From the NCBI GenBank assembly GCA_963790305.1, contig CAWBOC010000002.1:160001-224000 (forward strand): DNA of 64,000 bases. The letters are read 5' to 3'. Position 1 is the stretch's first letter, and every line of letters begins with the position of its first letter. Below the pieces are notes generated by a model that saw only the letters and a program-made list of their open reading frames with translations, was not told where the DNA came from and did no database searches. This stretch comes from an uncultured Gemmatimonadaceae bacterium (GTDB taxonomy: Bacteria > Gemmatimonadota > Gemmatimonadetes > Gemmatimonadales > Gemmatimonadaceae). The position numbers were made by a program, and so were the translations under genes. Positions 38,325 to 54,705 of this stretch are shown piece after piece.

Positions 38325-39175
38325 AACGCTCCCCCTTCGAGGGTCTTACTCGCGATCACCAGCAGGTGTGCGCTACAGCCGATCACCGATTGCTCCGTCT
38401 CCAGGAGTCGCGCCACGTGCAGAAGGGCGGCGCGCTGATCTGCATTTGCCCAGCGGTCAACGAAATCAGGCAGAATCCAGCCCGGCCCCTCAACACCATA
38501 GACTCCATGCACCGCGAGGCCCGCTTGCTCCGCTTCCGCACGCAAGTCTTCGGGCGGATGGAAGTAGGCGGTCGTGAAGTAGTCGATGCGCTCAGTGGCA
38601 TTGCGGTGTTGTCCGTCTCGAACATCGCGCTCGACGATGCTCGCAAAGCGGGCATCGGCGAAGAGGTTGCGTGAGAGACCGTCGAGCGCTGACGCCCATC
38701 TCGAGATGCCGGCCGCGATGAGCACGCCACCGGGCTGAAGCACGCGGGCCGCCTCTCGTAGCGCCGCGTGCCGGTCGGTCGCGTCGACAAGATGGTAAAG
38801 CGGGCCGAGCAGGAGCACGAGTGCGGCGGTGGCGTCGGCGAATGGCAGCCCGCGTGCATCGCCCACGCGGCACGAGGCGAGTGGGGGATTCGCGTGTGCG
38901 TTGCGACGGCGTGCTTCGTCCACCAGGCGCGGGACAGCGTCGATGAGATGGACCGTGTACCCACGCTCGGCCATCCAAAAGGCGTAGGGGCCCGCCGCGC
39001 CGCCAATGTCGAGCACTGTCGCGGGCGCGGGCGGGGCGTGGCGCTCGATCAGCTCACGCGTCCGCGCTTCTTCGAGCTGGAAGGGCCCCTGCGCGAGGCG
39101 GGATTCTTCGGGCGTGCGGTCATAGAAGGCGGCAATGGCGGGATCGAGGCCCGCAGGCGGTTGCTCGGCCATCAC
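38321..39175 (-). CDS. Class I SAM-dependent methyltransferase
   Basis: VLDIGGAAG, GDAR, LGPLYHL, RVLQPGG. Confidence 0.9.
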   Translation of the reverse strand: MMAEQPPAGLDPAIAAFYDRTPEESRLAQGPFQLEEARTRELIERHAPPAPATVLDIGGAAGPYAFWMAERGYTVHLIDAVPRLVDEARRRNAHANPPLASCRVGDARGLPFADATAALVLLLGPLYHLVDATDRHAALREAARVLQPGGVLIAAGISRWASALDGLSRNLFADARFASIVERDVRDGQHRNATERIDYFTTAYFHPPEDLRAEAEQAGLAVHGVYGVEGPGWILPDFVDRWANADQRAALLHVARLLETEQSVIGCSAHLLVIASKTLEGGAL

Positions 39176-39972
39176 AGTGGAGGGTGGCGATCGATGCCCA
39201 CTTCTCGGCGGGCGAGTAGGGCTCCGTTCTCCCGATGGAAAAGGAGAAGTCGACGCGATCGGGTCGATCCGGACGATCCGGACGATGCGAAGGCGACGGT
39301 ATCACCCCGTATTGCGATCGAGTCTATCACGTTGAAATGACCGGACTGATAATCGTAGAGATCGCGCACGCTCCAATCATAGACGCCGGTCTCGAGATTC
39401 ACCCGACCAACAAATCCCATTGCCGACACGTAGGCGGCGTTGCCGTCGATGAGGGGTGGGCCGATGTTGAAGCTCGGTATGTGCGCGTGCCACCGTTGTC
39501 GAAGCGTCCGCCTCTCGAGGCGTGTAACCGTGGCGGCTCCGCTCTCGCCGTCGGTGATCTGGAAGGCGAGAAGCACATCGCCCGCGAGTGTGCGCACCAG
39601 AAGTAGTTCCATCGCCATGCTCGCCGTGTCCTGCCAATCGAGCTTGAACGGTTGTGCCGCGTCTGCATTCACGCGAAGGCCCCTGCCATCGCGCTCGAGT
39701 TGGTAAATCCCGTCGGAGAGAGCGAAGCAAAACCGTTCGGGCTCCACCTGCGGATCGGTCCCACGGCCAATCGCTGCGTGAAAGGCGAGCGTGTCGCCTG
39801 GTGGAAGCGAATCAATGGTCGGGCAGTCGAGTGCGCTCGTCGACTGAGGGGTTTCGCTCGCGACAGCCGTGGTGACTGGCGTGTCGGGCCGGTCCGCAGA
39901 TTTGGATGAATCGCTGCGGGGGCAGCCGATCAGGAATGCCAATATTGCGACGAGGCGCGTGACCAAGGGCAC
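39172..39972 (-). CDS. Hypothetical lipoprotein, beta-rich
   Basis: LIGC lipobox; GTGA overlap with methyltransferase. Confidence 0.6.
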   Translation of the reverse strand: MPLVTRLVAILAFLIGCPRSDSSKSADRPDTPVTTAVASETPQSTSALDCPTIDSLPPGDTLAFHAAIGRGTDPQVEPERFCFALSDGIYQLERDGRGLRVNADAAQPFKLDWQDTASMAMELLLVRTLAGDVLLAFQITDGESGAATVTRLERRTLRQRWHAHIPSFNIGPPLIDGNAAYVSAMGFVGRVNLETGVYDWSVRDLYDYQSGHFNVIDSIAIRGDTVAFASSGSSGSTRSRRLLLFHRENGALLARREVGIDRHPPL

Positions 39973-40044
39973 CCTGCTTCGGAGCGGGGGTCGGGAAGCC
40001 TGATCGTCGTCACCTTAACGGCCCCTCGCTCTCAATGCCACCCT

Positions 40045-42249
40045 TCAGTAGCGATAGTAGTCCACCGCTATCCTGAGTCCGCCGGCGGGGTCGCGACGCC
40101 AGATCACGAGAAACTCCACCACCGACGTGCGATCGCCGTTCGGCCCGGTCGTCACGAGCGTCGACCGCCCGATCTGATACGGATTGTCGGGGTGTCCGCC
40201 GACGTCGATCACGTCGAGCTTCCAGGACTTGGCGTTGCGGATGCCGGTCCAATACTTGTCCACCGCTGCACGCCCCTGGACGAGCTCGCCACGTTCGCCG
40301 TCGATGCGCGCGTCGTCGGTATAGAAGCGAGCGACGGCGAGCATGTCGCCCGAGTTGAATGCGGCGACCATGGAGTCGTTGACAGCCTGGATCTCGGCGC
40401 GCAGGGCCGGATTCTGCACCGGCGCACGCACGACAGGTGAGGTCGCGGTAGGCGGACGCTCGCCGCGCTCCGCATGCGAAAACTCCCAGAGCACGTTCAC
40501 GATCTTCCATTCCCCGTTCACGCGCGCGAGGTGCATGAGGTCGATCCAGTCCGTCATCCGTGCGCGCACACTCGCTGCGTTGCCGAAGATCTCGAGTATT
40601 TCGATTTCACGTCGACGCAGCGCCTCTGGCGTCTCCTTGCCCCAGCCGCGCCGAGTTCCCTGAACCAGAGTCATCGCCGTCTGGTTCTCCATGCGGTTCG
40701 CACCGCGCTCGGGGTCGGGCCGCCAGATGCGCTTGGCCAGGTCGGCATGAACGGCGCGCTCCATCCGCGCGGCGTCGCCGGTGTACCAGCCATCCACGTA
40801 GTCCAGCGCGGCGGCTCTGATCGCCGCACTATCGACCGACGCGCCCGTCATGGGAACGCGCTCCAGCACCTGCCAGGAGCCCCACGTCAGGTGCGTGATG
40901 CGTCCGAGTGAGTCCTCGCGAAATCCGAACCGTCGCGCGCCATCCTCACTCGTGAAGAGGCGTGGACTGACCTCCACGAACTTGGCGCCGAATGCCGACA
41001 GCGTTCCGTCCTGGTTGGCGAGGACGTCAGTCTCGAACACCGGCCGGGGACTGGCGCAGGTATGACAGACGATGTTGCCACGATAGTGGCCCGCATAACG
41101 AGCGACCGCGCGGGCCGCGGCTTCCCGCGACGGGTGCATCGAGACCGGGCGCGTGCCAGCGCCTGGATTCCGCACCGGCGCAACGCGATCGAGCACCGCA
41201 CGCGTGACCGTGTGGCGGAGATTGCTCCCCTCACGGTGGCCGGCGACGAACACGCCGAGCTTCCGCGCTGGCAACAGCGTAAGGAGCGAGGAGAAGCCGG
41301 CAACGTCGCCGCCGTGCTGTACACCCCGCTCGTCGTTTCCTCGCTGGATCTGCTGCCACCCGAGCCCATAACCGGGGAGCATCGGATGCATCGTGACCTG
41401 CTCGCGCTGCATCTCGCGAGTCATCCGCTCACTCAAGATCGCGCTGCGTCCCCCGAGCTGTGCGACCATGAAGCGCGCCATGTCCAACGCCGTGCTGTTG
41501 ACCGATGACGCTGGCGTCGTGTGATACCATTCCCACGGCGCACGTACGGCGCTGTCCCCTTCGACGTCGTAAGGTATTGCCGTCTGCGAGCGAAAGGCCT
41601 CCGCGACCGTGATCGACGTCCGCGTCATGGCGAGCGGGCGCCAGATGCTGTCGACGAGATAGCGCTCGAAAGGGAGTCCCGAGACATCCTCGACGATGAC
41701 GCCGGCCAGCGCGATTCCGTACGTCGAGTACGCCGTCGCCGCGCCCGGTGGCGCGTACTGCACGAGCCGCGGGCGGAGATATTCCCGTAACGGCTGGAGG
41801 CTCGCCTCTCCGTCCGCGAGCGGACCCGGGCGGATCTCGTCCAGGGCCGCCGTGTGCGTCAGCAGATGCCGAACGGTCGTCGGCGTGCGATAGCGCGACC
41901 GGATCCGCAGGTCGCGCAGATAGGTGTTGACGCCGGAGTCGAAGTGGATGCGTCCGCGATCGGCCAGCTGCGCGACCGCAACGGCGGTCATGACCTTGCT
42001 GATCGATCCGATGCGGACAATCGTCGAGTCGGTCATCGGGCGCCGGCTCTCGATGTCGGCGAGGCCGTAGCCTTTCGAGAAGATCACTCGCCCACCATTC
42101 ACCACCGTCACCACCGCGCCCGGAATCCGCTCGGCGGCCATCGCCGCTGGCACAACCGAATCCAGCAGCGATCCCAAACCGGATGGGCTCTGCGCCGACG
42201 CGGCCCGCGTCAGGCAGCAGACGAGAAGAGCAGCGCTAAGCTTTGTCAT
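40045..42249 (-). CDS. Beta-lactamase-family serine hydrolase fused to two NTF2-like domains (lumazine-binding-like and DUF4440-like)
   Basis: SISK, LLTHT, YST, HGG; then DYVDGWYTGD..MERAVH; then AFNSGD...FY..WRR. Confidence 0.85.
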   Translation of the reverse strand: MTKLSAALLVCCLTRAASAQSPSGLGSLLDSVVPAAMAAERIPGAVVTVVNGGRVIFSKGYGLADIESRRPMTDSTIVRIGSISKVMTAVAVAQLADRGRIHFDSGVNTYLRDLRIRSRYRTPTTVRHLLTHTAALDEIRPGPLADGEASLQPLREYLRPRLVQYAPPGAATAYSTYGIALAGVIVEDVSGLPFERYLVDSIWRPLAMTRTSITVAEAFRSQTAIPYDVEGDSAVRAPWEWYHTTPASSVNSTALDMARFMVAQLGGRSAILSERMTREMQREQVTMHPMLPGYGLGWQQIQRGNDERGVQHGGDVAGFSSLLTLLPARKLGVFVAGHREGSNLRHTVTRAVLDRVAPVRNPGAGTRPVSMHPSREAAARAVARYAGHYRGNIVCHTCASPRPVFETDVLANQDGTLSAFGAKFVEVSPRLFTSEDGARRFGFREDSLGRITHLTWGSWQVLERVPMTGASVDSAAIRAAALDYVDGWYTGDAARMERAVHADLAKRIWRPDPERGANRMENQTAMTLVQGTRRGWGKETPEALRRREIEILEIFGNAASVRARMTDWIDLMHLARVNGEWKIVNVLWEFSHAERGERPPTATSPVVRAPVQNPALRAEIQAVNDSMVAAFNSGDMLAVARFYTDDARIDGERGELVQGRAAVDKYWTGIRNAKSWKLDVIDVGGHPDNPYQIGRSTLVTTGPNGDRTSVVEFLVIWRRDPAGGLRIAVDYYRY

Positions 42250-42341
42250 GCCACAACTTCAGCGGCGGCTCACCTACGCAACAGATGGAATGGGATGAAC
42301 TGGCCTCGCCGTGGAGCAAGCAGCAAAGCAACGGCTTCTTG

Positions 42342-42411
42342 AACGCAGAGGACGCAGAGGCGCAGAGGACGCAGAGGGAACAACCTCCGCGTCCTCCGCG
42401 TCCTCTGCGTT
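42342..42411. repeat. Inverted tandem-repeat hairpin, 9-mer ACGCAGAGG / CCTCYGCGT family
   Basis: aacgcagagg-acgcagagg-cgcagagg-acgcagagg ... cctccgcgt-cctccgcgt-cctctgcgtt. Confidence 0.9.
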
Positions 42412-42425
42412 AAAAAAAAGGCTCC

Positions 42426-43142
42426 TCACTTTGCCTTCAGAAGCATCCGGAGCTTGGAGCTGTGCGTCCGACTCGAGGTGATTCGGGAACCATCCTTCAT
42501 CGTCAGCACGTACTGGCCGTGCACATGCGGCTCGAGGGTCGCGACGCAATCCACGTTGACGATCGCGGAACGATGCACGCGGACGAACCTGCTCGGATCG
42601 AGCCTCGCCTCCACGGATTTCAGCGTCTCCCGGACGAGATGCCGCCGCCCGCCGCTATGCAGGCGTGCGTAGTTCCCTTCGCCGGCGATCCACTCCACAT
42701 CGGCAGCGCGCACGAGCGTCACCTTCGACGCCGAGCGCACGACGAATCGCGCCTCGGGTCGCGGACGCTCGCTGACGCGGGCGCGCGCGCGCGCCAGCGC
42801 TGCGCGGAACCGCGCGCGATCGAATGGCTTGAGGAGGTAGTCGACCGCGCTCACGTCGAACGCGCGGAGCGCGTACCCATCGTAGGCCGTCACCACGACG
42901 ATGAAGGGCCGCTCCTCGGGAGTGAGCCGGGATTCGAGCAGCTGCACGAGACTGAACCCGTCCATCTCGGGCATCTGGACGTCGAGGAAGAGCACCTGCG
43001 GCGCCGATTCGAGGATTCCCGTCAGCGCTTCCTCGCCTGTGCAGTACTCGCCGACGAGCGTGACGTCGGCCTCGTCGGCCACCAGCGCACGGATTCGTTC
43101 GCGTCCCAGGGGCTCGTCGTCGACCAGTGCGACGCGCAGCAT
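42426..43142 (-). CDS. LytTR family response regulator
   Basis: VDDEP, FLDVQMP, TAYD, DYLLKPF, FVRVHRSAIVN. Confidence 0.95.
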   Translation of the reverse strand: MLRVALVDDEPLGRERIRALVADEADVTLVGEYCTGEEALTGILESAPQVLFLDVQMPEMDGFSLVQLLESRLTPEERPFIVVVTAYDGYALRAFDVSAVDYLLKPFDRARFRAALARARARVSERPRPEARFVVRSASKVTLVRAADVEWIAGEGNYARLHSGGRRHLVRETLKSVEARLDPSRFVRVHRSAIVNVDCVATLEPHVHGQYVLTMKDGSRITSSRTHSSKLRMLLKAK

Positions 43143-43143
43143 C

Positions 43144-44232
43144 TCAGGCGGCGGCTGTGCGGAAGGGGATGTCGACGGCGACGAGCAACCCGCCCTCCTC
43201 GCCATTGGTGAGCTGGAGCGAGTGATCCGCGCCGTACCGCTCGCGCAGCCGCTCCCGCGTATTCGTTAGGCCGATCCCCTCGCGCGGAAAGCCGTTGCCC
43301 TGAAGGGCGGCGCCAGGACCGTCGTCCGAGACTGACAGGTGGAGACGCTCGCCGTCTCGCCTGGCCTGAATCGTCACGCGGCCACACCCCTGACGGGATC
43401 CGATGCCGTGCTGCAGCGCGTTCTCGACCAGCGGCTGGAGCACGAACCGCGGCACGAGCGCGCCATTTGTCTCGGTCGCGATCCGCACGTCGAGCGTGAG
43501 ACGGTCCTCGAATCGCACCCGCGCGATGTCGAGGTACGCGTCCAGCAGCTCCAGTTCCTCGGCCAGCGGAACCTCGGGGCGGTCGCGACCGTCCAGCGTA
43601 CGGCGCAGCAGATCGCCGAGGCGCGCGAGCATGGTGTCGGCCGCTTCGACGTCGCGGTGCATGAGCGTCGAGATGGCGTGCAGCGTATTGAACAGGAAGT
43701 GCGGCTGTAGCTGCGCCGTCAGTGTCTCGAGGCGCGCTTCGGCCAGCCGGGTCTCGAGGCGTGCGGCGCGCGCGGTGTCCTCCATGGCGCGGTGGTTGAA
43801 CTCGACGGCATGGATGACCGCGAACATGGCGGCGAATGCCATGAACTCGGTGACGATGTTGCCGACGATCAGGTTGCCGACGACGGCGCTGCGGTAGTCG
43901 GGGATGAGCCACCCGACGATCGCCGCGTACATGAAGTACTTGATCGGGACACACGCGAGCGCGACGACCATCTGCACGCCCACCGAGCGCCACCAGCGAG
44001 CGCGCTCCCACGGGATCGCGCGCACGACCCAGAAGAACAACGGGGTAAAGATCGCGCACGTGTACCAGTCGGCGAGGCGGTCGATCACCACCTGCGACCA
44101 CGGTACGGGACGACCGTCGCGCATGAAGTAGATGGACGTCTGGGCCGCCGAGAGCAGCCCGAGCACGGTCCAGATGGCGAAGCCGAGTAGCCACCGGAGC
44201 GAGCGGCGGCCCGGTGCGGCAGGAGGAGACAT
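43144..44232 (-). CDS. LytS/YehU-type sensor histidine kinase
   Basis: TM helices, QLQPHFLFNTL, QPLVENA, DDGPG, GIGL.N. Confidence 0.95.
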   Translation of the reverse strand: MSPPAAPGRRSLRWLLGFAIWTVLGLLSAAQTSIYFMRDGRPVPWSQVVIDRLADWYTCAIFTPLFFWVVRAIPWERARWWRSVGVQMVVALACVPIKYFMYAAIVGWLIPDYRSAVVGNLIVGNIVTEFMAFAAMFAVIHAVEFNHRAMEDTARAARLETRLAEARLETLTAQLQPHFLFNTLHAISTLMHRDVEAADTMLARLGDLLRRTLDGRDRPEVPLAEELELLDAYLDIARVRFEDRLTLDVRIATETNGALVPRFVLQPLVENALQHGIGSRQGCGRVTIQARRDGERLHLSVSDDGPGAALQGNGFPREGIGLTNTRERLRERYGADHSLQLTNGEEGGLLVAVDIPFRTAAA

Positions 44233-44315
44233 CCCGAAAGAATCTGACCGGCGAGCGGGGCGAGGCAAGCACTGCTCATCCCGTCGGACGGCCACTTCGT
44301 CTCAGGCGCGCCGGC

Positions 44316-45062
44316 TTACCTCCAGATGGAAGCGGCGGCGAGGCTGGCGCGCTCCCTCCACCGTTGCTCGTTCACGCCGGCGATGAGAAGCCAGAGGATA
44401 GTGGCTATCGCGCCCAGGAAGCCAACTCCGGCAACGACAGGGAACAGTCGCATGCCCAGCGGGGGCGACAGAAACGTCAGCCAACCCACGCTTCCGATCA
44501 ACGTCAGGACACCGAGGAAGCGAGGCAGAAAGGTCGATTTGAAGACGAGGTATCCCTTCACGATTCCATAGAATCCGAAAAACGCGAGCGCCATTCCGGC
44601 GGCCTGATCGTTCACCCGCAGGAATACGAGCGCGAGGGCATTCAGCTGGTCGGCATTGAATGCGCTCAGGGCCTGTGAGTTACCGCCGAGGACGAGCAGC
44701 GGCGCGAAGTAGAAAAGCCGACTGAGCGTCTTGATCGTGCAACCGACGAGACTGAAGACCGCCGCGAGGAGGGAAGCGCTTCTGCTGACCGGCTTGAGCA
44801 GGTAGTAGAAGAGCACCGTCATTGCGATCTGGGCGGCCATCTCGACGAGGTAGATGGTGAACCCGAGCTGGAAGAGCGGCCTCTGCGTCGTGATGTTGGC
44901 CGCGGTGGCGGCGGCGTCGCCCGCTACCACGAGCCGTTCGCTGATGAACAACTGGGCGACGATGCCTCCCACGATCGTGAGCAGGTAGAACACGCCCGTG
45001 ATTCGGGCCATGGTTCGGGGCGAGAGCTCGGCAATCCCTTTCATCGCAACGGGTGCACTCAT
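44316..45062 (-). CDS. DUF4386-like membrane protein
   Basis: ARITGVFYL, DAAATAANI, STFLPRFLG, LWLLIAGV. Confidence 0.8.
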   Translation of the reverse strand: MSAPVAMKGIAELSPRTMARITGVFYLLTIVGGIVAQLFISERLVVAGDAAATAANITTQRPLFQLGFTIYLVEMAAQIAMTVLFYYLLKPVSRSASLLAAVFSLVGCTIKTLSRLFYFAPLLVLGGNSQALSAFNADQLNALALVFLRVNDQAAGMALAFFGFYGIVKGYLVFKSTFLPRFLGVLTLIGSVGWLTFLSPPLGMRLFPVVAGVGFLGAIATILWLLIAGVNEQRWRERASLAAASIWR

Positions 45063-45727
45063 GCTGGCATCCTCCCCGCAACGCCCTTCGTGAGCAGCCA
45101 AAGCGCGAGCGCAACCTCGAACACCAGCATCGGCAGCCACATCAGCATCGCGATCGGGCCGTGGAGGAATCCGGCGTAGATGACCGGCAGACAAACCACC
45201 AGCAGCACCAATGCGCCAACGCCGAGCCATGCGAGAGGGATTGGGATCATTCGTCCCCGCAGAAGAAGCCACGAGAACAGCGTGCTCCCCACGGCGAAGA
45301 AAGTCGCGGGGAGGGCGACATCGTCCCTCAGCAGGTAGCCAGCAAGGGTGTGCGCTGCCGCCGTCGCGGATGCGTCCGCTCCCGTCGACGTCGCCAGCGA
45401 GAACACGGTGAGGATGCCGGGGATGGAAAGGCCGCCAATGATCCCCTCGCCGACGCGACAGGTGAGACCAAGCATTGCCAGGTCGTTGTCCTCGTCACGC
45501 GTGATCGCCCACAGCGTGACGCCCAGCACGAGTGCCGAGAAAGCCTGAACGAATCCGAGCAGGACCACGATGCCCACGGTGGTCTCGTGTCCCCCGATGC
45601 TCGCGAGCTTTTCTGCGATGGCATCTCCGCGGGTCGCCTGGCGAAACAGCACCATGCTGGTGATGCCAGCCGCGATGTAGACGAGAAACGTCGAACCGGC
45701 GATTCGGGCGTTCGTGGTGCGCGTCAT
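45059..45727 (-). CDS. DUF4386-like membrane protein (paralog)
   Basis: ARIAG, RMIPIPLAWLG, FEVALALWLLTKGV; ATGA overlap with the next gene. Confidence 0.8.
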   Translation of the reverse strand: MTRTTNARIAGSTFLVYIAAGITSMVLFRQATRGDAIAEKLASIGGHETTVGIVVLLGFVQAFSALVLGVTLWAITRDEDNDLAMLGLTCRVGEGIIGGLSIPGILTVFSLATSTGADASATAAAHTLAGYLLRDDVALPATFFAVGSTLFSWLLLRGRMIPIPLAWLGVGALVLLVVCLPVIYAGFLHGPIAMLMWLPMLVFEVALALWLLTKGVAGRMPA

Positions 45728-46004
45728 GGTCCCCTCGAGGCTGCGCGGAGGCCGCCACGCCAATGAAGCCGTTCACCGACGCGGCAGGCTTGAAGTCGGC
45801 CCTATGGGAAGGCCATACGAGGGCGTCCGCGCAAAGTTTCGAGAGGTCTGTGGGTGCCGGTGATCGCGGGAGTCTGCGTGGGTGATGCGTTCGGCAGAAC
45901 TCAGCGGGGCGCGCGGGCTCGGATCGAACCGTCAATGCCACCGGGGGCGTGATCGCCGGGAGAGAGCTCTCCCTCCTGGCCACTTCGAGCATATAAGGCA
46001 CCCG

Positions 46005-46023
46005 GGGACTTGCGGCAAGGCCC
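46005..46023. promoter_or_regulatory. Rifamycin-[17 protein letters not shown] (RAE)-like 19-bp inverted repeat
   Basis: GGGACTTGCGGCAAGGCCC, 67 bp upstream of a Rox-like monooxygenase; matches the actinobacterial RAE as I recall it. Confidence 0.75.
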
Positions 46024-46090
46024 AGGTCGTGTCGCAGAATCGTCGGCCGAAACAATCGGCCGAAGCCAGAACCTACGGAGAGGGGTGGCG

Positions 46091-47590
46091 ATGATCGAGC
46101 ATGCAGTGGTGATCGCCGGCGGAGGTCCGACAGGGCTGATGCTGGCAGGCGAGCTGGCGTTGGCGCGGGTCGACGTCGCGATTGTCGAGCGGCGCCCAAG
46201 CCAGCACCTCGCCGGCTCGCGCGCGGGCGGCCTGCACTCACGCACCATCGAGGTCCTCGATCAACGCGGCATCGCGGATCGGTTCCTCTCGGAGGGACAG
46301 GTGGCTCAGGTTGCGGGGTTCGCCAGCGTCCGTTTGGACATCAGCGACTTCCCCACCCGACACAATTACGGGCTCGGGCTGTGGCAGAACCACATCGAGC
46401 GCATCCTGGCCGGCTGGGTCGGCGAGCTGGCGGTGCCGATCTATTACGCCAGTGAAGTCACAGGCTTCACGCAGGACGACACCGGCGTCAATGTCCAGCG
46501 GTCCGACGGCCGGTCGCTACGAGCGCAGTATCTCGTCGGGTGCGACGGAGGACGCAGTCTGATCCGGAAGGCAGCCGGCATCGACTTCCCGGGGTGGGAT
46601 CCGACGACCAGCAGCCTGATCGCCCAGGTCGAGATGACGGAGGAGCCGGAATTGGGCATCCGCCGCACTCCCTCGGGCATGCACGCCCTCGGCAAGGTCG
46701 AGTACGAGATCAAAGACGGCCAGGTGGTCTACAAGCCAGGGGGGACGGTTGGCGTCATGCTGACCGAGTCGCACGTCGGACGCACGAGCGAGCCCACCCT
46801 GCGCGATCTCAGCGAGGGTCTCATCGCGGTTTACGGCACTGATTACGGGATCCACAGTCCCACCTTCATCTCCCGGTTCACCGACATGACTCGTCAGGCA
46901 GCGACCTACCGCCAGGGACGGGTGCTGCTGGCCGGCGACGCGGCGCACGTGCATTCCCCGGTCGGTGGACAGGGCCTCAACACGGGCGTGCAGGATGCGG
47001 TGAACCTGGGATGGAAGCTGGCGCAGGTCGTCAAAGGAATATCGCCCGAACGCCTCCTGGATACCTACCACGCCGAGCGCCATCCGATCGCTGCACGCGT
47101 GCTGCGCAACACGATGGCGCAAGTCGCGCTCATGCGCGTCGACGATCGCGTCGAGGCGTTGCGCGACACCGTGTCCGAGCTGCTGAGCATGGACGAGCCG
47201 CGTAAGCGATTCGCCGCGATGATGTCCGGTCTGGACATTCGGTACGAGCTCGGCGAGGGACACCCGCTGCTGGGCCGACGCATGCCCGACCTCGACCTCG
47301 GCACGCCTAACGGGCCGCGGCGGGTCTTCACCCTGCTGCACGATGCCCGACCGGTGCTGCTCAACCTCGGTGCGCCAGGCGTCTTCGACATCACTCCGTG
47401 GCGTGATCGCGTTCAAATGGTCGACGCGAAATACGATGGGCCGTGGGAGCTTCCGGCCCTCGGGGCGGTCACGCCTCCCACCGCCGTGTTGGTTCGACCC
47501 GACGGATACGTGGCCTGGGTGGGAGACCTGGCCCAGGTGGGGCTCGTCGACGCGCTCACCACCTGGTTCGGACCGCCTGCTGCGCCGTAG
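46091..47590 (+). CDS. Class A FAD-dependent monooxygenase, rifampin monooxygenase (Rox)-like
   Basis: GGGPTG, EVLDQRG, GCDGGRS, GTDYGIHSP, GDAAHVH..GGQGLN, LVRPDGYVAW, WFG. Confidence 0.88.
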   Translation: MIEHAVVIAGGGPTGLMLAGELALARVDVAIVERRPSQHLAGSRAGGLHSRTIEVLDQRGIADRFLSEGQVAQVAGFASVRLDISDFPTRHNYGLGLWQNHIERILAGWVGELAVPIYYASEVTGFTQDDTGVNVQRSDGRSLRAQYLVGCDGGRSLIRKAAGIDFPGWDPTTSSLIAQVEMTEEPELGIRRTPSGMHALGKVEYEIKDGQVVYKPGGTVGVMLTESHVGRTSEPTLRDLSEGLIAVYGTDYGIHSPTFISRFTDMTRQAATYRQGRVLLAGDAAHVHSPVGGQGLNTGVQDAVNLGWKLAQVVKGISPERLLDTYHAERHPIAARVLRNTMAQVALMRVDDRVEALRDTVSELLSMDEPRKRFAAMMSGLDIRYELGEGHPLLGRRMPDLDLGTPNGPRRVFTLLHDARPVLLNLGAPGVFDITPWRDRVQMVDAKYDGPWELPALGAVTPPTAVLVRPDGYVAWVGDLAQVGLVDALTTWFGPPAAP

Positions 47591-47599
47591 CGGGCCGAG

Positions 47600-48067
47600 C
47601 TACCGCGGCCGAAGCTCCCAGAGCACGTTGACGATGACCCACCGGTCGTTCCACCGGGCGACGTGCAGGTAATCGACCCAGCTGTCGGCGTCGACCCGCA
47701 CGCTGGCCGTGTTGCCGAAGATGTCGAGGATGCGAACGTCCTTGCGTTGCTCGGCGACCGGCGTGTCCTTCCCACCGCCGCCACGCGTATTGACGACGAG
47801 CGTCATCGCGCTCTGGTGCCCGAGCACGCGGCGTCCGCGCTGGTCGGTATTCATGATTCGCTTCGCCAGATCCGGGTGAACCGCGCGCTCCATGCGCTCG
47901 GCGTTCCCGGTGTACCAGCCCTCGATGTAATCGAGCGCAGGGGCTCGGATCGCCGCGCTGTCGGCCGCGGACTGTGCGGGCACCATGGTGGGGAGTGCGA
48001 GCGTTGCGATCCAGGCGATCGTGATCGAGATGCGCCTGCTGCGTGGGATGGCGTTGCTTGCTGGCAT
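47600..48067 (-). CDS. Secreted NTF2-like (lumazine-binding-like) protein
   Basis: Signal peptide; LDYIEGWYTGNAERMERAVHPDLAKR; WVIVNVLWE. Confidence 0.85.
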   Translation of the reverse strand: MPASNAIPRSRRISITIAWIATLALPTMVPAQSAADSAAIRAPALDYIEGWYTGNAERMERAVHPDLAKRIMNTDQRGRRVLGHQSAMTLVVNTRGGGGKDTPVAEQRKDVRILDIFGNTASVRVDADSWVDYLHVARWNDRWVIVNVLWELRPR

Positions 48068-48104
48068 GTTGGCGCCCGAAGTGATGGGTTGGTGTGAGGT
48101 GTGG

Positions 48105-48797
48105 CTATCGAAGCCAAAGGTATCGGCGCGCGTTGCTCGGAGGCAGCGGCGGGACCGGGGGGACGGGAGCAGTCGCGGGGCTCAATTCCCAGAGGGGTCG
48201 GTCAGCATCGGATGGGTCTCCTCTCTCGATCACGCCCCCGTGCTCGATCGATTGCGTGACGCGCGCATCGCCCCAATACGTGATGTTCCCACCCTCCACG
48301 ACGCTGGCGACCAACGCGGTGAACGGCCTCACGAAAATCCTGCCGCCACTCAGCACCGAGGCGGTGACGCTCCCTACCGACATCGACCGGATGTCGACAC
48401 CGCCGCCATTGTCGACGTCGACGCGAATCTCCGCCTGACGCGGGAAGCCGCCCCGGCTCTGGATCATTCCTCCTTGAGCGACGGAGACGCGCGCGACCTC
48501 CGGAGTGAGAATCTCGATCTCAATGTCGTACCCTCGGCCGCACTTGCTCTTGCATTTGTCGATCACCAGCTCGCCTCCCGACGCGACGGTGACCTGCGTG
48601 TGCTCGGGGCTGCCTCTGAGGAAGGTCACGCGCTGGGTCGACCCATACCGAAGGAACACCTTGCCGCCGTGCCGCAGCTCGACGGAGCGGAACGGCGCAA
48701 CTGCCACCGACATGGGTTCCGACTGGGCCGCCGCCTGACCGGAGGGGATTCCGGAAAGCACCAGCACCCCGCAGACCCGCGCAACGATGGATGTCAT
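48105..48797 (-). CDS. GIN/DUF2807-like beta-helix exported protein
   Basis: AGGAG RBS, signal peptide, PFRSVEL, repeated V.xGG motifs, ITYWGD. Confidence 0.7.
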   Translation of the reverse strand: MTSIVARVCGVLVLSGIPSGQAAAQSEPMSVAVAPFRSVELRHGGKVFLRYGSTQRVTFLRGSPEHTQVTVASGGELVIDKCKSKCGRGYDIEIEILTPEVARVSVAQGGMIQSRGGFPRQAEIRVDVDNGGGVDIRSMSVGSVTASVLSGGRIFVRPFTALVASVVEGGNITYWGDARVTQSIEHGGVIERGDPSDADRPLWELSPATAPVPPVPPLPPSNARRYLWLR

Positions 48798-48822
48798 GAT
48801 CTTCTCCTGTGGTCGCCGCTCG

Positions 48823-48875
48823 CGATACCTTGTCATTCGACAATACGGCGGCTGTTGTCGAACGTCAAGGTATCG
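48823..48875 (-). promoter_or_regulatory. Sigma70-type promoter TTGACG-N17-TATTGT overlapped by a 21-bp inverted repeat
   Basis: -35 at 48863-48868 and -10 at 48840-48845 on minus strand; arms 48823-48843 and 48855-48875 match 19/21. Confidence 0.65.
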
Positions 48876-48896
48876 GCCACAACGAGTACTACGCGC

Positions 48897-49295
48897 TTAC
48901 CGGCGGTCGAATTCCCACACGTTGTCCTGGTCGCGTCCGGCTCCGCGAATCCGCTCCGTAGCCCGTAGTCGGCGCCCCCCGTCGGTGAGCTGGTAGCGCC
49001 ACGTCATGACCACGGCGGCCTCCGGCGAACCCATCCGGTTCTCGGTGACGAGCGCCTCTTGCTCCCAGTAGCAGCGGGAACTGTCGTGCGCGCTCACCAC
49101 GCTCTCATGGCCATCCGTGAGGCGCTCGAAGCTGAACTCGACCGCGTCAGCGGCGCTGGCGAACCTTGCCGAGCAGCGAAATCGCGGCTCATCGTGCTCG
49201 ATGCGGAGCACGGCGGTCTCGATCGCCGCAGCGCTGGCGCTGAGCGCGCTCGCTTGTCGGTTCAGGACGTAGTCGCCCGAATAGTTGGGCTTCAC
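48897..49295 (-). CDS. Hypothetical protein (lipocalin-like beta barrel)
   Basis: GGAGG RBS; PNYSGDYVLN..S N-terminal motif. Confidence 0.65.
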   Translation of the reverse strand: MKPNYSGDYVLNRQASALSASAAAIETAVLRIEHDEPRFRCSARFASAADAVEFSFERLTDGHESVVSAHDSSRCYWEQEALVTENRMGSPEAAVVMTWRYQLTDGGRRLRATERIRGAGRDQDNVWEFDRR

Positions 49296-49431
49296 GGTGT
49301 CCCTCCGAGTTACAAGGGTGTAGCTGACGTCACCTGGGTGTCAGCAGATTATTCCCTGTGTGATGACTTGCCCTAGGAGAGTGCCCCTGGATTTCCCGCT
49401 CTTCACCTTTGGAAACGACTAAGAGGAGCCC

Positions 49432-49818
49432 GTGAGAAACGCGATCGTGACGGAGAAAGCCCCAAAGCCGGTTGGTCCGTATTCGCAGGCCGTCGTCGAG
49501 GGAGATTTCATTTTCGTTGCCGGGCAGGGATGCATCAATCCAAAGACCGGGATGCTGGAGCTTGGTGACGTGCGGTCGGAGACGAAGCGGACCTTTGAGA
49601 ATTTGCAGGCGATTCTCCAGGCTGCAGGCTCCTCACTCGATCACGTCGTGAAGTGCAACGTGTATCTTCGCGACATCAACGATTTCGCCGCGATGAACGA
49701 AGTGTACGCGACGTTCTTCTCGGCGCCGTTTCCGGCGCGCACCACGATCCAGGCTGGCGCGCTTCCGGGTGGGATCGCCGTGGAGATCGAGTGCATTGCG
49801 AAGAAGGGCGCTCGATAG
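49432..49818 (+). CDS. RidA/YjgF/UK114 family imine deaminase
   Basis: APKPVGPYSQA, NEVY..FF..FPART, VEIECIA; GAGGAG RBS. Confidence 0.95.
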   Translation: MRNAIVTEKAPKPVGPYSQAVVEGDFIFVAGQGCINPKTGMLELGDVRSETKRTFENLQAILQAAGSSLDHVVKCNVYLRDINDFAAMNEVYATFFSAPFPARTTIQAGALPGGIAVEIECIAKKGAR

Positions 49819-49886
49819 GCGGGCCCGGCCGCGTTACGCCACGGCGATGAACTCGCGTCGCATCAACAGTGACATGGCGGGCTTGG

Positions 49887-50759
49887 CTACGGGAGGCGGC
49901 GGACCGAGACCGGGTCCTTCCGCTTCACGCCGAACCTCGAGGCGAAATTGCCCTGGTTGACGGAGAACGAGAGCACGCCTCGTGAGTGCATCACGGCAAG
50001 GGCCTGACCACGCGGCACGTCGCTGAACGTGCTGCGCCAGGGCAGCCGCACGGCGCGAGAGCCGACGCGCACTTCCAGCGAGTCTCCGAGGTGTGCCTGG
50101 AGCGAATCGAGCAATGCCGGTCGAATGTCGGTCACCACGTTGCCGTACGGGTCCTCGACGTACCGGACCGTCCCCTCAATGCGCCCTCCGCCGAGCCGCG
50201 CGGGCCGCACGTCGAGCATCACCGGCGTGATCGGAGGCCCGAGGGAATCGAGCGGTGTGCCGGCGGCGAGGTGCGCCGCGACCGGCGCGAAGATGTCTCG
50301 GCCATGGAAGGTGAACGACGTCTGCTCGGCACGGAAATACCGCGTGTCGCGCAGCTCGACGGCCCGCTCGACTCCTTCCGTCTGCATAACGAGCGTGAAC
50401 AGGCCGTTATCGGGGCCAACGAGCAGGTGCCCGCGCCTGGTCAGGACCGCGATGGGCTTGCGCTCGCTGCCGACGCCCGGGTCGACGACCGCGACGGCCA
50501 CCGTGCCCGGCGGGTAGAAGGGGAGCGCCTGCTCGAGCACTTCGCCCGCGATCTCGATGTCGTAGGGCGGAACGTCGTGCGTGAGGTCGACCACCGGAGC
50601 GCCGGGAGCGATGCTCAGCATCACCCCTTTGCACGCCGCTACGGCGCCGTCTCTGATCCCGAAATCACTGAGGAAGAGAATGGAGGCCGATGCGCGGCGC
50701 GCACTGTCGGCTGAACACCCTGTCGCGGCGACGATCGCGAGGATCGCCACCGCGCGCAT
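49887..50759 (-). CDS. SAM hydroxide adenosyltransferase / chlorinase-fluorinase superfamily (DUF62) protein
   Basis: SDFG, DLTH, VVDPGVGSER, GPDNG, TFHGRDIFAP, D.YGN. Confidence 0.92.
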   Translation of the reverse strand: MRAVAILAIVAATGCSADSARRASASILFLSDFGIRDGAVAACKGVMLSIAPGAPVVDLTHDVPPYDIEIAGEVLEQALPFYPPGTVAVAVVDPGVGSERKPIAVLTRRGHLLVGPDNGLFTLVMQTEGVERAVELRDTRYFRAEQTSFTFHGRDIFAPVAAHLAAGTPLDSLGPPITPVMLDVRPARLGGGRIEGTVRYVEDPYGNVVTDIRPALLDSLQAHLGDSLEVRVGSRAVRLPWRSTFSDVPRGQALAVMHSRGVLSFSVNQGNFASRFGVKRKDPVSVRRLP

Positions 50760-50767
50760 CCTTCCGC

Positions 50768-51163
50768 TCAAGGCGTGCCCGCGCGCATCTCCTCGAGCGC
50801 GAGCTGCATGTACATGAACGCGGCTGCCTCGTCGGTCATCGGCTGCTGGCGAAATGAATCGAGCCATGCCGTGATTCGAGTATCGGCGGGAGCGATCGCG
50901 CGCTCCAGCTCGGCGCGTTCGGCCGGGGTCGCGCGATCTACGGCCGCGTTCCGGTCGACATCATCGCCAATGCCCCAGCGCTCGGCGAGCGGCACCAAAT
51001 GCCGGAGATCCTCGGGGACGTTGTTGACGTTGAGCTCGGCCGTCGTCGCTCCACCTGGAGAGCTCTGTGAGGACGTGTCATCCGCGGCCGTTCCACAGGC
51101 GACCACAGCCGCGAGAAGAAACGTTAGGCGGAGGGCGGAGCGAGCGAAGCTGGGGAGCGTCAT
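50768..51163 (-). CDS. Hypothetical lipoprotein
   Basis: GGAGG RBS, VVAC lipobox, VPEDLRHLVPLAERWGIGDD. Confidence 0.7.
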   Translation of the reverse strand: MTLPSFARSALRLTFLLAAVVACGTAADDTSSQSSPGGATTAELNVNNVPEDLRHLVPLAERWGIGDDVDRNAAVDRATPAERAELERAIAPADTRITAWLDSFRQQPMTDEAAAFMYMQLALEEMRAGTP

Positions 51164-51171
51164 CCTGCCTC

Positions 51172-52566
51172 CTAGGAGCCGGGCTCGGGTGGACCGCGCG
51201 GACGCGGAGGCGGCCAGTGCGGCATCGCCAGCTCGGTCGTCCACCGCGTCCAATCGGCCGCGAGCTCCCTGACCTTGTCCGGGTACCTGCCCGCAAGGTC
51301 CGTGGCCTCAGCAATGTCGTCCTTCAGATTGAAGAGGGCCGCTCCGGTCAGGTCAGTCACGACGGCGGAATCGGTCTGTGCGCTGCGCGCACCGACCTTC
51401 ACCAGCTTCCAGTCTCCTTTGCGAATCGCCATCGACCCACCGTAGCGCCAGTAGAGTGCATCGTGGGGCGATCCGGCACGGTCGCCGGTGAGGAAGGGAA
51501 GAAGGTTTACGCCATCCAGCCGTCGCTCCGGCAATGGTTTCACGCCGGCTGCCGCCAGCGCCGTCGGCAACACATCGATCTGCATGACCGGCCGAGCGTC
51601 CGTTGTCCCCTCGTTCAAACGACCCTTCCATCGAACGATGAACGGAACGCGGATCCCGCCCTCCAACGTCTCCCCTTTCGAGCCCCTGAGGGGTGTGTTG
51701 CGCGAGCCGTTGATGCCTCCCGCGGTCGTCGGGCCGCCGTTGTCACTGAAGAAAAAGATCATCGTGTGATCGTCGAGCTGCTCCTTCTGAAGCGCGCCAA
51801 GTGTGCGACCGATGCCCTCGTCCATGGCTGACAGCATTGCGGCGTACGTGCGCCGCTGCGGGTCGGTGATCCCGGCGAAGCGCGCGACGTACTTCTCCGT
51901 GACCTCGAGCGGCACGTGCACGGCATTGAATGCCAGGTAAAGCAGGAAGGGTTGTGCGCGGTTCCGATGAATGAACTCCACGGCGCGGGTGGCGAGCTCG
52001 TCCGTCAGATACTGCATCTCCGACGCGCGCGCGCGTCCATCGTACACCGGGTTGGGACCCGCCGCCTGCGGACTCATGTATGAATGCGCGCCGGCGAGAA
52101 AGCCAAAGAACTCGTCGAATCCTCTCTCCATGGGGTGGAGCCGCGGGGCGAACCCGAGATGCCACTTCCCGAACAGCGCGGTGCGATATCCCGCGCCCTT
52201 GAGATAGTCCGCGATCGTGCGCTCCTCGAGACTCAAGCCCAGGTCACTGCCGATCGCGCTGAGGCCGACGTTGAATTCGTGGCCGAAGCGCTGCTGGTAT
52301 CGCCCGGTCATGAGCCCCGCGCGGGTTGGACTGCACACCGGTGCGCTTACGTACGCATCGGTGAAGCGGACCCCGCCTCGTGCGAGCGCGTCAATGTTGG
52401 GGGTCGGGATGTCGATTCCGCCGTAGGCACCGACGTCACCGTACCCCATGTCGTCCGCGACGATAATGACGATGTTCGGCGGCCGGCGCTGGGCGCGCGC
52501 GTCCGCGCAGAGCGTCATCATCCCCACGGCCGCCACGGCCGCCAGCGCAAGTCCAGGGATTCTCAT
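51172..52566 (-). CDS. Cys-type sulfatase (arylsulfatase A-like)
   Basis: PNIVIIVADDMG, CSPTRAGLMTG, GKWHLG, SDNGG, EGGIRVP. Confidence 0.95.
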   Translation of the reverse strand: MRIPGLALAAVAAVGMMTLCADARAQRRPPNIVIIVADDMGYGDVGAYGGIDIPTPNIDALARGGVRFTDAYVSAPVCSPTRAGLMTGRYQQRFGHEFNVGLSAIGSDLGLSLEERTIADYLKGAGYRTALFGKWHLGFAPRLHPMERGFDEFFGFLAGAHSYMSPQAAGPNPVYDGRARASEMQYLTDELATRAVEFIHRNRAQPFLLYLAFNAVHVPLEVTEKYVARFAGITDPQRRTYAAMLSAMDEGIGRTLGALQKEQLDDHTMIFFFSDNGGPTTAGGINGSRNTPLRGSKGETLEGGIRVPFIVRWKGRLNEGTTDARPVMQIDVLPTALAAAGVKPLPERRLDGVNLLPFLTGDRAGSPHDALYWRYGGSMAIRKGDWKLVKVGARSAQTDSAVVTDLTGAALFNLKDDIAEATDLAGRYPDKVRELAADWTRWTTELAMPHWPPPRPRGPPEPGS

Positions 52567-52604
52567 GACATGCCGTCCTGCCGAAGCTGCGCGAGAGCGC
52601 CTCG

Positions 52605-53261
52605 TTAGGGACCAGCCCGCTCGCGCGCGGTCGGGAAGGGAGCCGCGGGGTAGGGGCCAATTTTCTCCACCGTGTACTCGCTCGCCCAGAAGTCTGGCGG
52701 CCCTTCGCTGTCGGCCACGCGGTTGCTCACCGGTTTCACGCCGCGTTTGAGATATGCGGCGATGTCACGCAGCTCCTGGTCGGACATGTGCCGAAACGCC
52801 GGCCACGGCATGGGGATGGCGAGGTACTTTGGATGCGCCGGGAAGTTGCCCTGACCTGGCGTCGTCGACGTGATCGTGACGTCCGGCGTCTCACCAGGGC
52901 GCAAGCCGTAGCGCAGTGCGTTGAAGATCTGGCGCTCACTGAACCGCCCGAGACCCGTCATGTTGTCGGGTGTCAGATTGCGCGGCCGTGTCTTGAATGG
53001 CCCGATCTTGAACTCCTGCGCGGTGTCTCGCACTCCGACAAGCCAGCCATCCGTATTCGGATTCGAGAAGCCGCCATGGCAATCTCCGCACGCGTGGCCG
53101 ATCACCAGGGCCCGGCCACGGAGGACCTGCTCGTCGGCCGCCAGGGTTGCTGACGCATCGTCGGCTCCAAAGCTCGCGAATACAGAGCCAACGAGGGCGG
53201 CGACGACGACGAGACCCAGCAATAGCGGTGCTGACCTGCTCAGTGAGCGTAGCGATCCCAC
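52605..53261 (-). CDS. Exported monoheme cytochrome c
   Basis: CGDCH, NLTPD..TGLG, MPW; AAGGAGG RBS. Confidence 0.85.
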   Translation of the reverse strand: MGSLRSLSRSAPLLLGLVVVAALVGSVFASFGADDASATLAADEQVLRGRALVIGHACGDCHGGFSNPNTDGWLVGVRDTAQEFKIGPFKTRPRNLTPDNMTGLGRFSERQIFNALRYGLRPGETPDVTITSTTPGQGNFPAHPKYLAIPMPWPAFRHMSDQELRDIAAYLKRGVKPVSNRVADSEGPPDFWASEYTVEKIGPYPAAPFPTARERAGP

Positions 53262-53298
53262 GGGATCCTCCTTGCGTCAGTGATGAGGCATCTCCCCT

Positions 53299-54705
53299 TC
53301 ATTTCGGGCGCTTCGTGCTCCTGGCGTCGGCGTTTCGCTCTTCGGTCACTTCGAGAATCCCCATCATGCCGTGATCCTCGTGGTCCAGGATGTGGCAGTG
53401 GAACATCCACTTGCCCGGGAAGTTCGCGTAGCGGACGATGAAGCGCGCCGAGCCGTGCTTGGGCACGTTCACCACATCCTTCCACGCACGGAACGGCTCG
53501 GGCGCGCCATTGCGATCGAGGACCTGGAACTGGAATCCGTGCAGGTGAAACGGATGGTCCATGCCGACGAGATTCTCGATCTCCCAGATCTCGGTGGCGC
53601 CCAGCTTTGCGGCCACGTCCACGCGACTGTGGTCCATCATCTGACCGTTGATCATCCCCTGCGTGAGCACCATGAGACGCGTAGCGCTCGACTGCGTGGT
53701 GTCCAGCGCCGGAACGGGACGTAGCACGTCCGGCAGCGGTGCGACGGTGATCGGTCGCCGTTTCGTGTACTGCACGGTGAGCAGCTCGCGCGTGCGATTC
53801 CACGTGTGCGGGCGCGTCTGCGGGATGTAGCGATCGTAGGGGAGCGCCTGGAGCGCAGTCCGCTCGCCCGGCGCTCCCATTCCCCTCACGAGGAGCTCCA
53901 CCCGCTCGGCGTTCGCGACCACGATCTCATCGACTTCCACCGCCCGCTCGAAGAGCCCGCCATCGCTGCCAACGTGCAGCAGCTTGTGGCCGGGAAGTGA
54001 AAGCCTGTACACGCGTGCGGCCGACGCGTTGATCACCCGCCACCGCTGCACCTCTCCCGCGCGAATGCTGATCGTCGGCATCACCTTGCCGTTCACGAAG
54101 ACAATGTCGCCCTCGCGCCCATTTTCGCGGTCGACGATTCCCGCTGGCGAGAGCGACGCGGGCAGATCGATCGAGTTGTCGGCCCCGAACCGGTTGTCGG
54201 AGATGACGATCAGCTTTTCGGGAATCCCCCGCAGCGGATCATCGGATGCCCGGACGATGACGGCACCGTAGAGTCCCTTCGCTATCTGATAGCCGGTCCG
54301 ATGGTGCGGGTGTGGATGATACCAGTACGTCCCTGCGGTTCCGGGCCGGATGGTGAAGACGTAGTCGTACGTCTCCCCGGGCGCGACTGGGTGGAACGGG
54401 CTGCCATCGGACGTGAACGGGAGGTGCAGCCCGTGCCAATGAATGGTGGTCGGTTCCGGGAGGGCGTTTCGGAAGTGCACCGTCACCCGGTCACCTTCCC
54501 GAAACTCCAGCGTGGGCCCGGGAAATTGCCCGTTGTAGGCAAAGATTTCCGTCGGCGCGCCCGGCACGAGCGACAGCCGGGTGGGCGCGGCGGTGAGCGT
54601 CACCTCGACCCGCCTCTGCGCCAGAGCGGGCCACGGACACATCGACGTCAGACCAACGAGCACCAACCCGCGGCAGAGCGTCGTCGCTCGGCGGTTGAGC
54701 GCCAT
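53299..54705 (-). CDS. Multicopper oxidase
   Basis: IHWHG, WYHPH, HPFHLHG, HCHILDHEDHGMM. Confidence 0.95.
   Translation of the reverse strand: MALNRRATTLCRGLVLVGLTSMCPWPALAQRRVEVTLTAAPTRLSLVPGAPTEIFAYNGQFPGPTLEFREGDRVTVHFRNALPEPTTIHWHGLHLPFTSDGSPFHPVAPGETYDYVFTIRPGTAGTYWYHPHPHHRTGYQIAKGLYGAVIVRASDDPLRGIPEKLIVISDNRFGADNSIDLPASLSPAGIVDRENGREGDIVFVNGKVMPTISIRAGEVQRWRVINASAARVYRLSLPGHKLLHVGSDGGLFERAVEVDEIVVANAERVELLVRGMGAPGERTALQALPYDRYIPQTRPHTWNRTRELLTVQYTKRRPITVAPLPDVLRPVPALDTTQSSATRLMVLTQGMINGQMMDHSRVDVAAKLGATEIWEIENLVGMDHPFHLHGFQFQVLDRNGAPEPFRAWKDVVNVPKHGSARFIVRYANFPGKWMFHCHILDHEDHGMMGILEVTEERNADARSTKRPK

Follow-up and report, generated by a model that had tools for sequence, protein, structure and literature searches.

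A probable RAE ahead of a PRK06834 monooxygenase gene in Gemmatimonadaceae, with two predicted back-to-back promoters

Does the RAE, a rifamycin-responsive element of Actinobacteria reportedly defined by Spanogiannopoulos in 2014, also stand before a gene in another phylum, and how would it work there? The question is raised by a 64,000-nucleotide stretch of Gemmatimonadaceae DNA (the window), in which 67 bp separate a 19-bp imperfect palindrome at 46005–46023 from the downstream ATG (46091) of a class A flavin monooxygenase gene (46091–47590, plus strand, 499 amino acids; hereafter P0001) with a purine-rich ribosome-binding site at 46077–46085 (plus strand). A preliminary description of the window had read this pair as an RAE-like element upstream of a Rox-like gene in an apparently non-actinobacterial genome; its position and spacing are as we find them, and its enzyme class agrees with the Pfam domains FAD_binding_3 and Rng_hyd_C. 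In the available text of three sources, the RAE is an inverted repeat of 19 bp that lies a short way ahead of a single gene (10.1101/2021.05.10.443488, 10.1101/2021.05.10.443476, PMC10719064). Our analysis points to a larger object: a unit of about 90 bp with two predicted promoters, which in the presence of rifamycin likely switches on a PRK06834 monooxygenase that in turn likely hydroxylates and inactivates the drug. We assign this reading a probability of roughly 0.55.

Gene context and flanks of the 19-mer

The 19-mer differs from its own reverse complement at three positions. Across the window, nothing but the site itself and its reverse strand matches it (chance mean 0.01), and it is single-copy in the 4.31 Mb genome when up to two mismatches are allowed. 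It is oriented to the gene and lies well within the 500 bp upstream that define an RAE. On its outward side are two tandem genes for DUF4386 membrane proteins (44316–45727, minus strand), which are context only, their adjacency to the element not being conserved. On the gene side of the unit, a Lumazine_bd_2 gene occupies window 47600–48067; a sequence like it occurs at G000:C2:200480-200838, inside a large open reading frame at window 40045–42249.

We judged the identity of the element empirically, from the gene context of exact 19-mers and from a flank matrix. A scan of GTDB genomes found at least 119 loci with the exact 19-mer; among the matches listed, 100 were titled actinomycete and 19 otherwise. 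As assessed by tblastn to representatives, 112 of the 119 listed matches are followed by a helR, rox, rgt, rph, arr or PRK06834-type gene (helR 51, Rox-like 21, rgt-like 18, PRK06834-like 10, rph 6 and arr 6, among the matches listed), and one further listed match has helR on the opposite side. We scanned 15 representative loci of the listed matches against NCBIfam cut-offs, above which came four Rox, one HelR, one Arr and three PRK06834 proteins. Three rgt-like representatives had NF000354 as their best match, yet fell below its cut-off; the genes of the second HelR and of the single Rph representative run into the locus edge, and at the threshold applied nothing matched an 80-amino acid Arr piece. 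That the identical 19-mer stands before rox and helR genes passing NCBIfam cut-offs served, with the flank score given below, as a proxy for a match to the published motif. Among the 19 listed matches outside the actinomycetes, 14 have a gene of a rifamycin-defence class or of PRK06834; they come from Gemmatimonadota (rph, rgt-like and PRK06834), Acidobacteriota (PRK06834 and rgt-like), Gammaproteobacteria (arr and PRK06834) and one unclassified record. In three more the flanks score at chance level (−50 to −69), and the last two were placed neither with the defence genes nor with chance.

Because the core was the search key, we scored the flanks alone, using a matrix of 69 non-redundant actinomycete copies with the core left out. 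The window site scored 55.8 bits, compared with a leave-one-out median of 59.1 for the actinomycete copies, and the next-best score among 8.6 million genome positions was 4.1. A plasmid gene annotated as rox has the same extended element, with a flank score of 79.6. The RAE identity proposed in the preliminary description is thus borne out by the gene context of the exact matches together with the flank score. The loose core pattern alone (one mismatch) gave 33 hits in 301 genomes of the phylum, but the reversed control hit at least as many genomes; we therefore dropped such hits as evidence, and counted copies are flank-scored or gene-anchored only.

Some individual copies stand apart. In Streptomyces sp. 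ME19-03-3 (L119:301-619), an exact RAE with an intact −10 box on the gene side (inward, as defined below) precedes an open reading frame that belongs to none of the five known RAE gene classes; judged by eye, its beginning looks like RibD_C-type reductases, but its 65-amino acid piece gave no Pfam hit. A RibD_C-containing cluster is the most recurrent cassette neighbour (7 of 69 loci). Exact RAEs at L098, L100/L270 (Gammaproteobacteria, Xanthomonas sp.) and L118/L269 (Pinirhizobacter) precede arr-like genes and one PRK06834 gene. In Gemmatimonadota and Acidobacteriota, the RAE stands before rph at L008, L033, L136 and L147 and before rgt-like genes at L057, L074, L108 and L117, the last of these being truncated. 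Two Thermoanaerobaculia loci (L021 and L079) have the exact core and keep the outward box, with no known gene after either; L021 has lost the inward side. A core variant with a central TT recurs (L238, L244, L253, L263, L296 and L297), including on alphaproteobacterial plasmids.

Predicted promoters and the proposed sensing of the drug

The preliminary description had confined the element to 19 bp. This core holds, but the description missed an extent of about 90 bp and two predicted opposed promoters. The conserved unit is symmetric about its centre, and each half of the core holds a TTG. On the plus strand, the predicted inward promoter comprises a −35 box, TTGCGG, at 46010–46015 (its TTG 97–100% conserved in gene-first copies), a −10 box, CAGAAT, at 46035–46040, 19 bp from the −35, and a start at about 46047 (46046–46048), which was placed from the −10 position and fits the geometry of Mycobacterium smegmatis helD P2. 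The core thus overlaps the predicted −35 of the gene promoter, a TTG box 19 bp from a conserved −10. On the minus strand, the predicted outward promoter has a −35 box, TTGCCG, at 46013–46018, which overlaps the inward one by 3 bp, a −10 box, TATGCT, at 45988–45993, again at 19 bp, and a predicted start, GG, at 45980–45981 (the +1 base is G in 91% and 87% of copies). Near this start, a perfect 16-bp palindrome at 45958–45973 (minus strand) could form a hairpin in the predicted outward RNA; with no U tract and a folding z of about 0, it is at best a worn terminator.

The box nAnnnT is found at spacer 19 on the inward side in 69/69 actinomycete and 55/62 gene-first copies, and on the outward side in 67/69 and 44/62, where chance would give about 0.03 per site at this GC. 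A(−11) and T(−7) are placed symmetrically, each strand having them 19 bp from its TTG. The first base of the inward box is mostly C, with a pyrimidine start after the box; that of the outward box is T, and the +1 G and a purine-rich stretch (0.83 and 0.74 versus 0.51 and 0.49) come after it. A hairpin with a U tract follows the predicted outward start in 16/69 and 10/60 copies (2.1 and 1.7 in shuffles, 0 on the forward strand), beginning exactly at +1 in six of the eight actinomycete examples listed. Spacing on the outward side varies, and some copies are worn. A box of the form A....T can be taken for a −10 in both orientations; promoter direction was assigned from the TTG spacing, the +1 G and the M. 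smegmatis start sites described below.

No plus-strand TAnnnT lies within 150 bp upstream in the window. A stock sigma-70 and terminator scan returned nothing, the sigma-70 part because its spacers are limited to 16–18, and Rfam gave no match at E values up to 1. In RNA folding, neither the core nor the leader nor the outward RNA stood out (z between −0.65 and 0.16), and we rejected the core as a selected hairpin or cruciform, as it shows no covariation (positions 4/16 complementary at 0.34 versus 0.33 expected). At the predicted inward start, window 46046–46067 contains a short repeat and a small inverted repeat, with CGGCCGA units, which give a 5-bp leader hairpin that folds no better than shuffles. 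The RNA data consisted of 16 runs with shares of at most 0.08, and the four examined gave just short relative fragments.

Published start sites, mapped in log phase without drug, allow the geometry to be compared with M. smegmatis. In tables S2 and S3 of PMC6448022, the helD starts are 2250780 minus (an orphan, in both datasets), 2250785 plus and 2250847 plus. From the orphan minus start to the P2 sense start is 67 nt as listed, against 66 predicted by the motif. The chance of a start within 2 nt is near 0.002 as a genome average, based on a density of about 0.45 starts per kb per strand taken from the table's row number, and is higher in intergenic DNA. According to the available text of a review, the RAE lies about 20 bp below the 2250785 start, over the −35 of helD P2 (PMC10719064). 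This placement fits the back-to-back promoter geometry, the position of the M. smegmatis RAE being taken here from the review's wording and the spacing. For arr, the table gives no start in the sense direction, but one on the minus strand lies 97 nt ahead of the codon (PMC6448022), which implies an RAE-to-ATG gap of 53–54, compared with 51 at a mycobacterial arr locus; the authors attribute this minus-strand start to the neighbour gene that runs divergently. In the start-site table of M. abscessus, neither helD nor arr has a start where one would be expected.

A precedent for sensing without a dedicated factor comes from Bacillus subtilis helD/pps, where, in the available text of PMC12802891, RNA polymerase senses rifampicin by means of two promoters. 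The RAE resembles this system in its sense and antisense promoters, the 19-bp antisense spacer and a short terminated antisense RNA, all predicted here. The B. subtilis promoters, however, converge at a distance of 39 bp and act by transcription interference, whereas those of the RAE are predicted to diverge and to share a −35 region. We found no conserved convergent upstream sense promoter in the actinomycete or the gene-first set, and the unit is not a convergent dual promoter of the B. subtilis type.

We propose that the outward promoter, with T at −12, a purine-rich start and often a tiny hairpin-U RNA, would carry the traffic, and that the inward promoter, with C at −12, a 19-bp spacer and the shared −35 region, would stay weak. 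At sub-inhibitory drug, the outward promoter would trap RNA polymerase that has rifamycin bound and cannot make its RNA longer than 2–3 nt, and this trapped complex would turn the inward promoter on. RNA polymerase itself would then be the sensor, and every phylum that has a sigma-70-type holoenzyme would be able to use the unit. We favour this trapped-polymerase reading, in which polymerase and not a dedicated regulator senses the drug, at about even odds, because no regulator is linked to the element, because it occurs in four phyla, and because B. subtilis offers a precedent. Against such a switch, the −35 boxes overlap, so that a polymerase caught at the outward promoter might equally well obstruct the inward one, and overlapping promoters abolished rifampicin induction in B. 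subtilis, as stated in the available text of PMC12802891.

The main rival retains the same inducible unit but takes the palindrome to be an operator, bound by a dimeric, rifamycin-responsive transcription factor whose gene lies elsewhere, with the outward promoter incidental or co-regulated. An operator is the working hypothesis in the available text of PMC10719064 and PMC12802891; the dyad is sequence-specific without covariation, and its GGG/CCC edges are conserved beyond what a −35 needs, as in an operator. Deletion of half the RAE is described in the published text available as abolishing inducible resistance, but that deletion takes away a −35 too. Moreover, the element occurs in four phyla among the matches listed without a linked regulator, the left neighbours including 1 AraC-type protein among 40 and no neighbour cluster recurring in more than 7/69 loci, and the outward −10 signature is as strict as the gene-side one. 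We therefore regard an operator as unlikely, though ahead of the alternatives discussed below. A divergent partner gene was also considered and rejected: the left neighbours were divergent in 26 loci, same-direction in 15, not called in 17 and too short in 11, and their families are unrelated.

In a wider and distinctly tentative form of the trapped-polymerase reading, the RAE may be a factor-free cross-phylum sensor, built from overlapping divergent promoters and a trapped polymerase, that has spread with rox, rgt, rph, arr and PRK06834 genes into Gemmatimonadota, Acidobacteriota and Proteobacteria. Within that factor-free reading, PRK06834 would be a second, unrecognised family of rifamycin-destroying monooxygenases.

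The monooxygenase and the unit in which it travels

P0001 carries GxGxxG at residue 10, GCDGG at 150 and GDAAH at 282. Its NCBIfam subfamily is PRK06834 (NF005303), on which it scores 918.2 bits over residues 1–497, above the cut-off of 625. On rif_monoox (NF033145), which all four actinomycete Rox controls pass, it scores 468.8 bits, below the cut-off of 800. Among PDB sequences it matches OxyS best (387 bits), then Rox (358). A predicted model (pLDDT 87.7, with low confidence at residues 284–292), which served the fold search only, matched OxyS, MtmOIV and Rox about equally. P0001 resembles Rox/RIFMO (NF033145; PDB 5VQB, 6BRD, 5KOW and 5KOX) in its predicted class A fold (TM-score 0.81–0.84), its 42–47% identity to Rox rows and its linkage to an RAE, but differs in a substrate-domain loop, which has an insertion, and in the replacement of Arg43, Phe69, Pro97 and a conserved strand arginine. 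Its top sequence and fold matches are aromatic-polyketide oxygenases of the OxyS, MtmOIV, PgaE and CabE kind; unlike in the setting of those enzymes, no polyketide biosynthetic genes were seen among the open reading frames of 38000–54000 (six proteins scanned) or among the neighbours of its relatives.

In trees built under LG+G4, PRK06834 and Rox rows formed separate clades, each with 100% support, both in a 108-row quick tree and in a 36-row careful tree, and both free trees parted the two by unstarred branches. A tree constrained to unite PRK06834 and Rox was 30.7 log-likelihood units better than the quick free tree (p-AU 0.72); the backbone of the quick tree is therefore unreliable, and a sister relation of PRK06834 and Rox is not rejected. 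Judged by profile and tree, P0001 is not a canonical member of the Rox family. By the preliminary description's own test, the placement of the enzyme outside the Rox clade weakens its link to rifamycin.

The pocket gives a mixed picture. When P0001 was compared with the 14 residues listed for the rifampicin pocket of Nocardia farcinica RIFMO in the available text of PMC11375879, seven were identical (the equivalents of His46, Val71, Phe74, Phe256, Pro283, Gly285 and Leu341), three were conservative (Leu176 to Ile, Ile215 to Met and Thr284 to Val) and four were changed or unalignable (Arg43, Phe69, Val93 and Arg201), several of these positions varying among Rox too. RIFMO Arg43 corresponds to Gly46, Phe69 to Ala72 and Pro97 to Trp98, and the Arg201 region could not be aligned. 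Where 10 of 11 Rox rows share an arginine, which is important in Rox, P0001 has Gly221; of 71 element-bearing PRK06834 rows, 37 have Arg at this position and 30 have Gly. SaRox (WP_018809167.1), a Rox homologue with just 49% identity to NfRox, degrades rifamycin SV according to the available text of PMC7283461, so rifamycin activity reaches some way out from NfRox. On balance, P0001 probably inactivates rifamycins.

The element and the gene are portable as one unit, in which element, spacing, gene family and co-occurrence are all directly observed. Of 301 genomes of the phylum, 25 yielded PRK06834, at 26 loci, 23 of which have a core (at most four mismatches) 45–104 bp upstream. Of 80 metagenome homologues (74–87% identity), 74 had enough upstream DNA; a core with at most three mismatches lay within 250 bp in 46 of the 74, as opposed to 1/74 and 0/74 in two controls, and just beyond 250 bp in one, leaving 27/74 without a recognisable core nearby. 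Seven of eight congeners have the gene, and in all seven it is accompanied by the core and both −10 boxes, each time at a different site; the phylum, metagenome and congener sets include kin, and these counts are not independent draws. Homology to the congener copies stops at about 45962–45998 and 47577–47611, which delimits the portable unit to 45962–47611 (plus strand). At an empty site in one congener (G315), the genes on either side are joined directly, without window 44305–47599; another genome (G314) keeps a DUF4386 gene but not the unit. Genome G161, which is flagged as unpublished, underlies none of the claims made here.

The orthologue SMa1939 of S. meliloti 1021 (L293, on pSymA), a model strain open to genetics, is 74% identical, has no core within 1834 bp and has its own start site; the gene is present in 44 Sinorhizobium plasmid records. 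Among four other proteobacterial plasmid copies, those of Bosea and Variovorax lack the element and those of Phyllobacterium and Rhizobium have a worn core. On the Bosea plasmid (L294), a broken PRK06834 copy immediately follows a gene annotated as an AAC(3)-I aminoglycoside acetyltransferase. In 11 of 69 copies (L203, L189, L204, L232, L241, L245, L191, L250, L262, L264 and L174), a decayed rgt start lies between the element and the monooxygenase, which suggests either that rgt has been replaced repeatedly or that an operon of rgt and monooxygenase has decayed.

These remnants bear on a second alternative, that the element is inducible but the enzyme oxidises another aromatic polyketide, rifamycin being a cue of actinomycete neighbours or the enzyme having come to lie behind the element when an rgt gene decayed. 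The failure of P0001 on rif_monoox, its top matches to OxyS and MtmOIV, the pocket changes, the 11/69 rgt remnants and the lack of the element in about a third of homologues would all suit this view. However, an intact element stands before orthologues of 56–87% identity at unrelated sites, and 112 of the 119 listed exact matches precede rifamycin-defence classes or PRK06834; with the activity of SaRox, and with sisterhood to Rox not rejected, we consider another substrate improbable. Still less probable is that the Gemmatimonadota element is a passenger, an ordinary weak promoter with no drug response. Some copies are indeed worn, the outward-side spacing is variable, and the outward terminator is worn in the window copy; yet the core and both −10 boxes persist in 7/7 congeners despite differing flanks, and other copies of the element in this phylum stand ahead of rph and rgt-like genes.

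The host is what the preliminary description took it for, a bacterium outside the Actinobacteria. The genome is 94% complete with 0.47% contamination, and its RpoB is 97% identical over 1531 amino acids to that of a Gemmatimonadaceae MAG; compared in pieces, it is about 67–83% identical to two other Gemmatimonadota and 48–72% to Streptomyces. A misbinned actinomycete fragment, which high GC and an actinomycete MAG copy among the nearest homologues might suggest, is next to impossible on a 249-kb contig whose GC equals that of the other contigs, given the low contamination, and is largely refuted by the synteny of the unit's neighbour genes in congeners. In the rifamycin-binding stretch of the host RpoB, the residues look like those of the drug-sensitive wild type when compared with E. 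coli, and the queries used found no helR, rgt, rph or arr in this genome. We consider the unit quite likely to be rifamycin-inducible in this host.

An RAE beyond the Actinobacteria

The element shares with actinobacterial RAEs an identical 19-mer, matching flanks and, among the matches listed, a place before helR, rox, rgt, rph and arr genes. It departs from them in its host, since membership among RAEs has been tied to Actinobacteria and this host is a Gemmatimonadaceae bacterium, and in its downstream gene, which belongs to an uncharacterised monooxygenase clade. It also differs from the RAE as described in the published text available, being a conserved unit of about 90 bp with a second, predicted outward promoter. 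A real RAE outside the Actinobacteria, standing before a non-Rox monooxygenase of likely rifamycin-inactivating function, is the probable interpretation of this locus.

RAE sensing was called mechanism-unknown in a 2021 preprint and was still unresolved in January 2026, in the available text of PMC12802891. Our literature searches on the RAE, whose scope did not extend to subscription papers and theses, returned none that place it outside Actinobacteria or describe an outward promoter. A thesis from the discovering laboratory may describe RAEs in Proteobacteria and sensing by the polymerase.

An overlooked orphan start in the published M. smegmatis data matches the reading as back-to-back promoters, and this reading would make RAE sensing sharply testable. 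PRK06834 monooxygenases fall below the NCBIfam Rox cut-off and are labelled "hypothetical protein". Together with its element, the family would extend inducible rifamycin defence to Gram-negative soil phyla.
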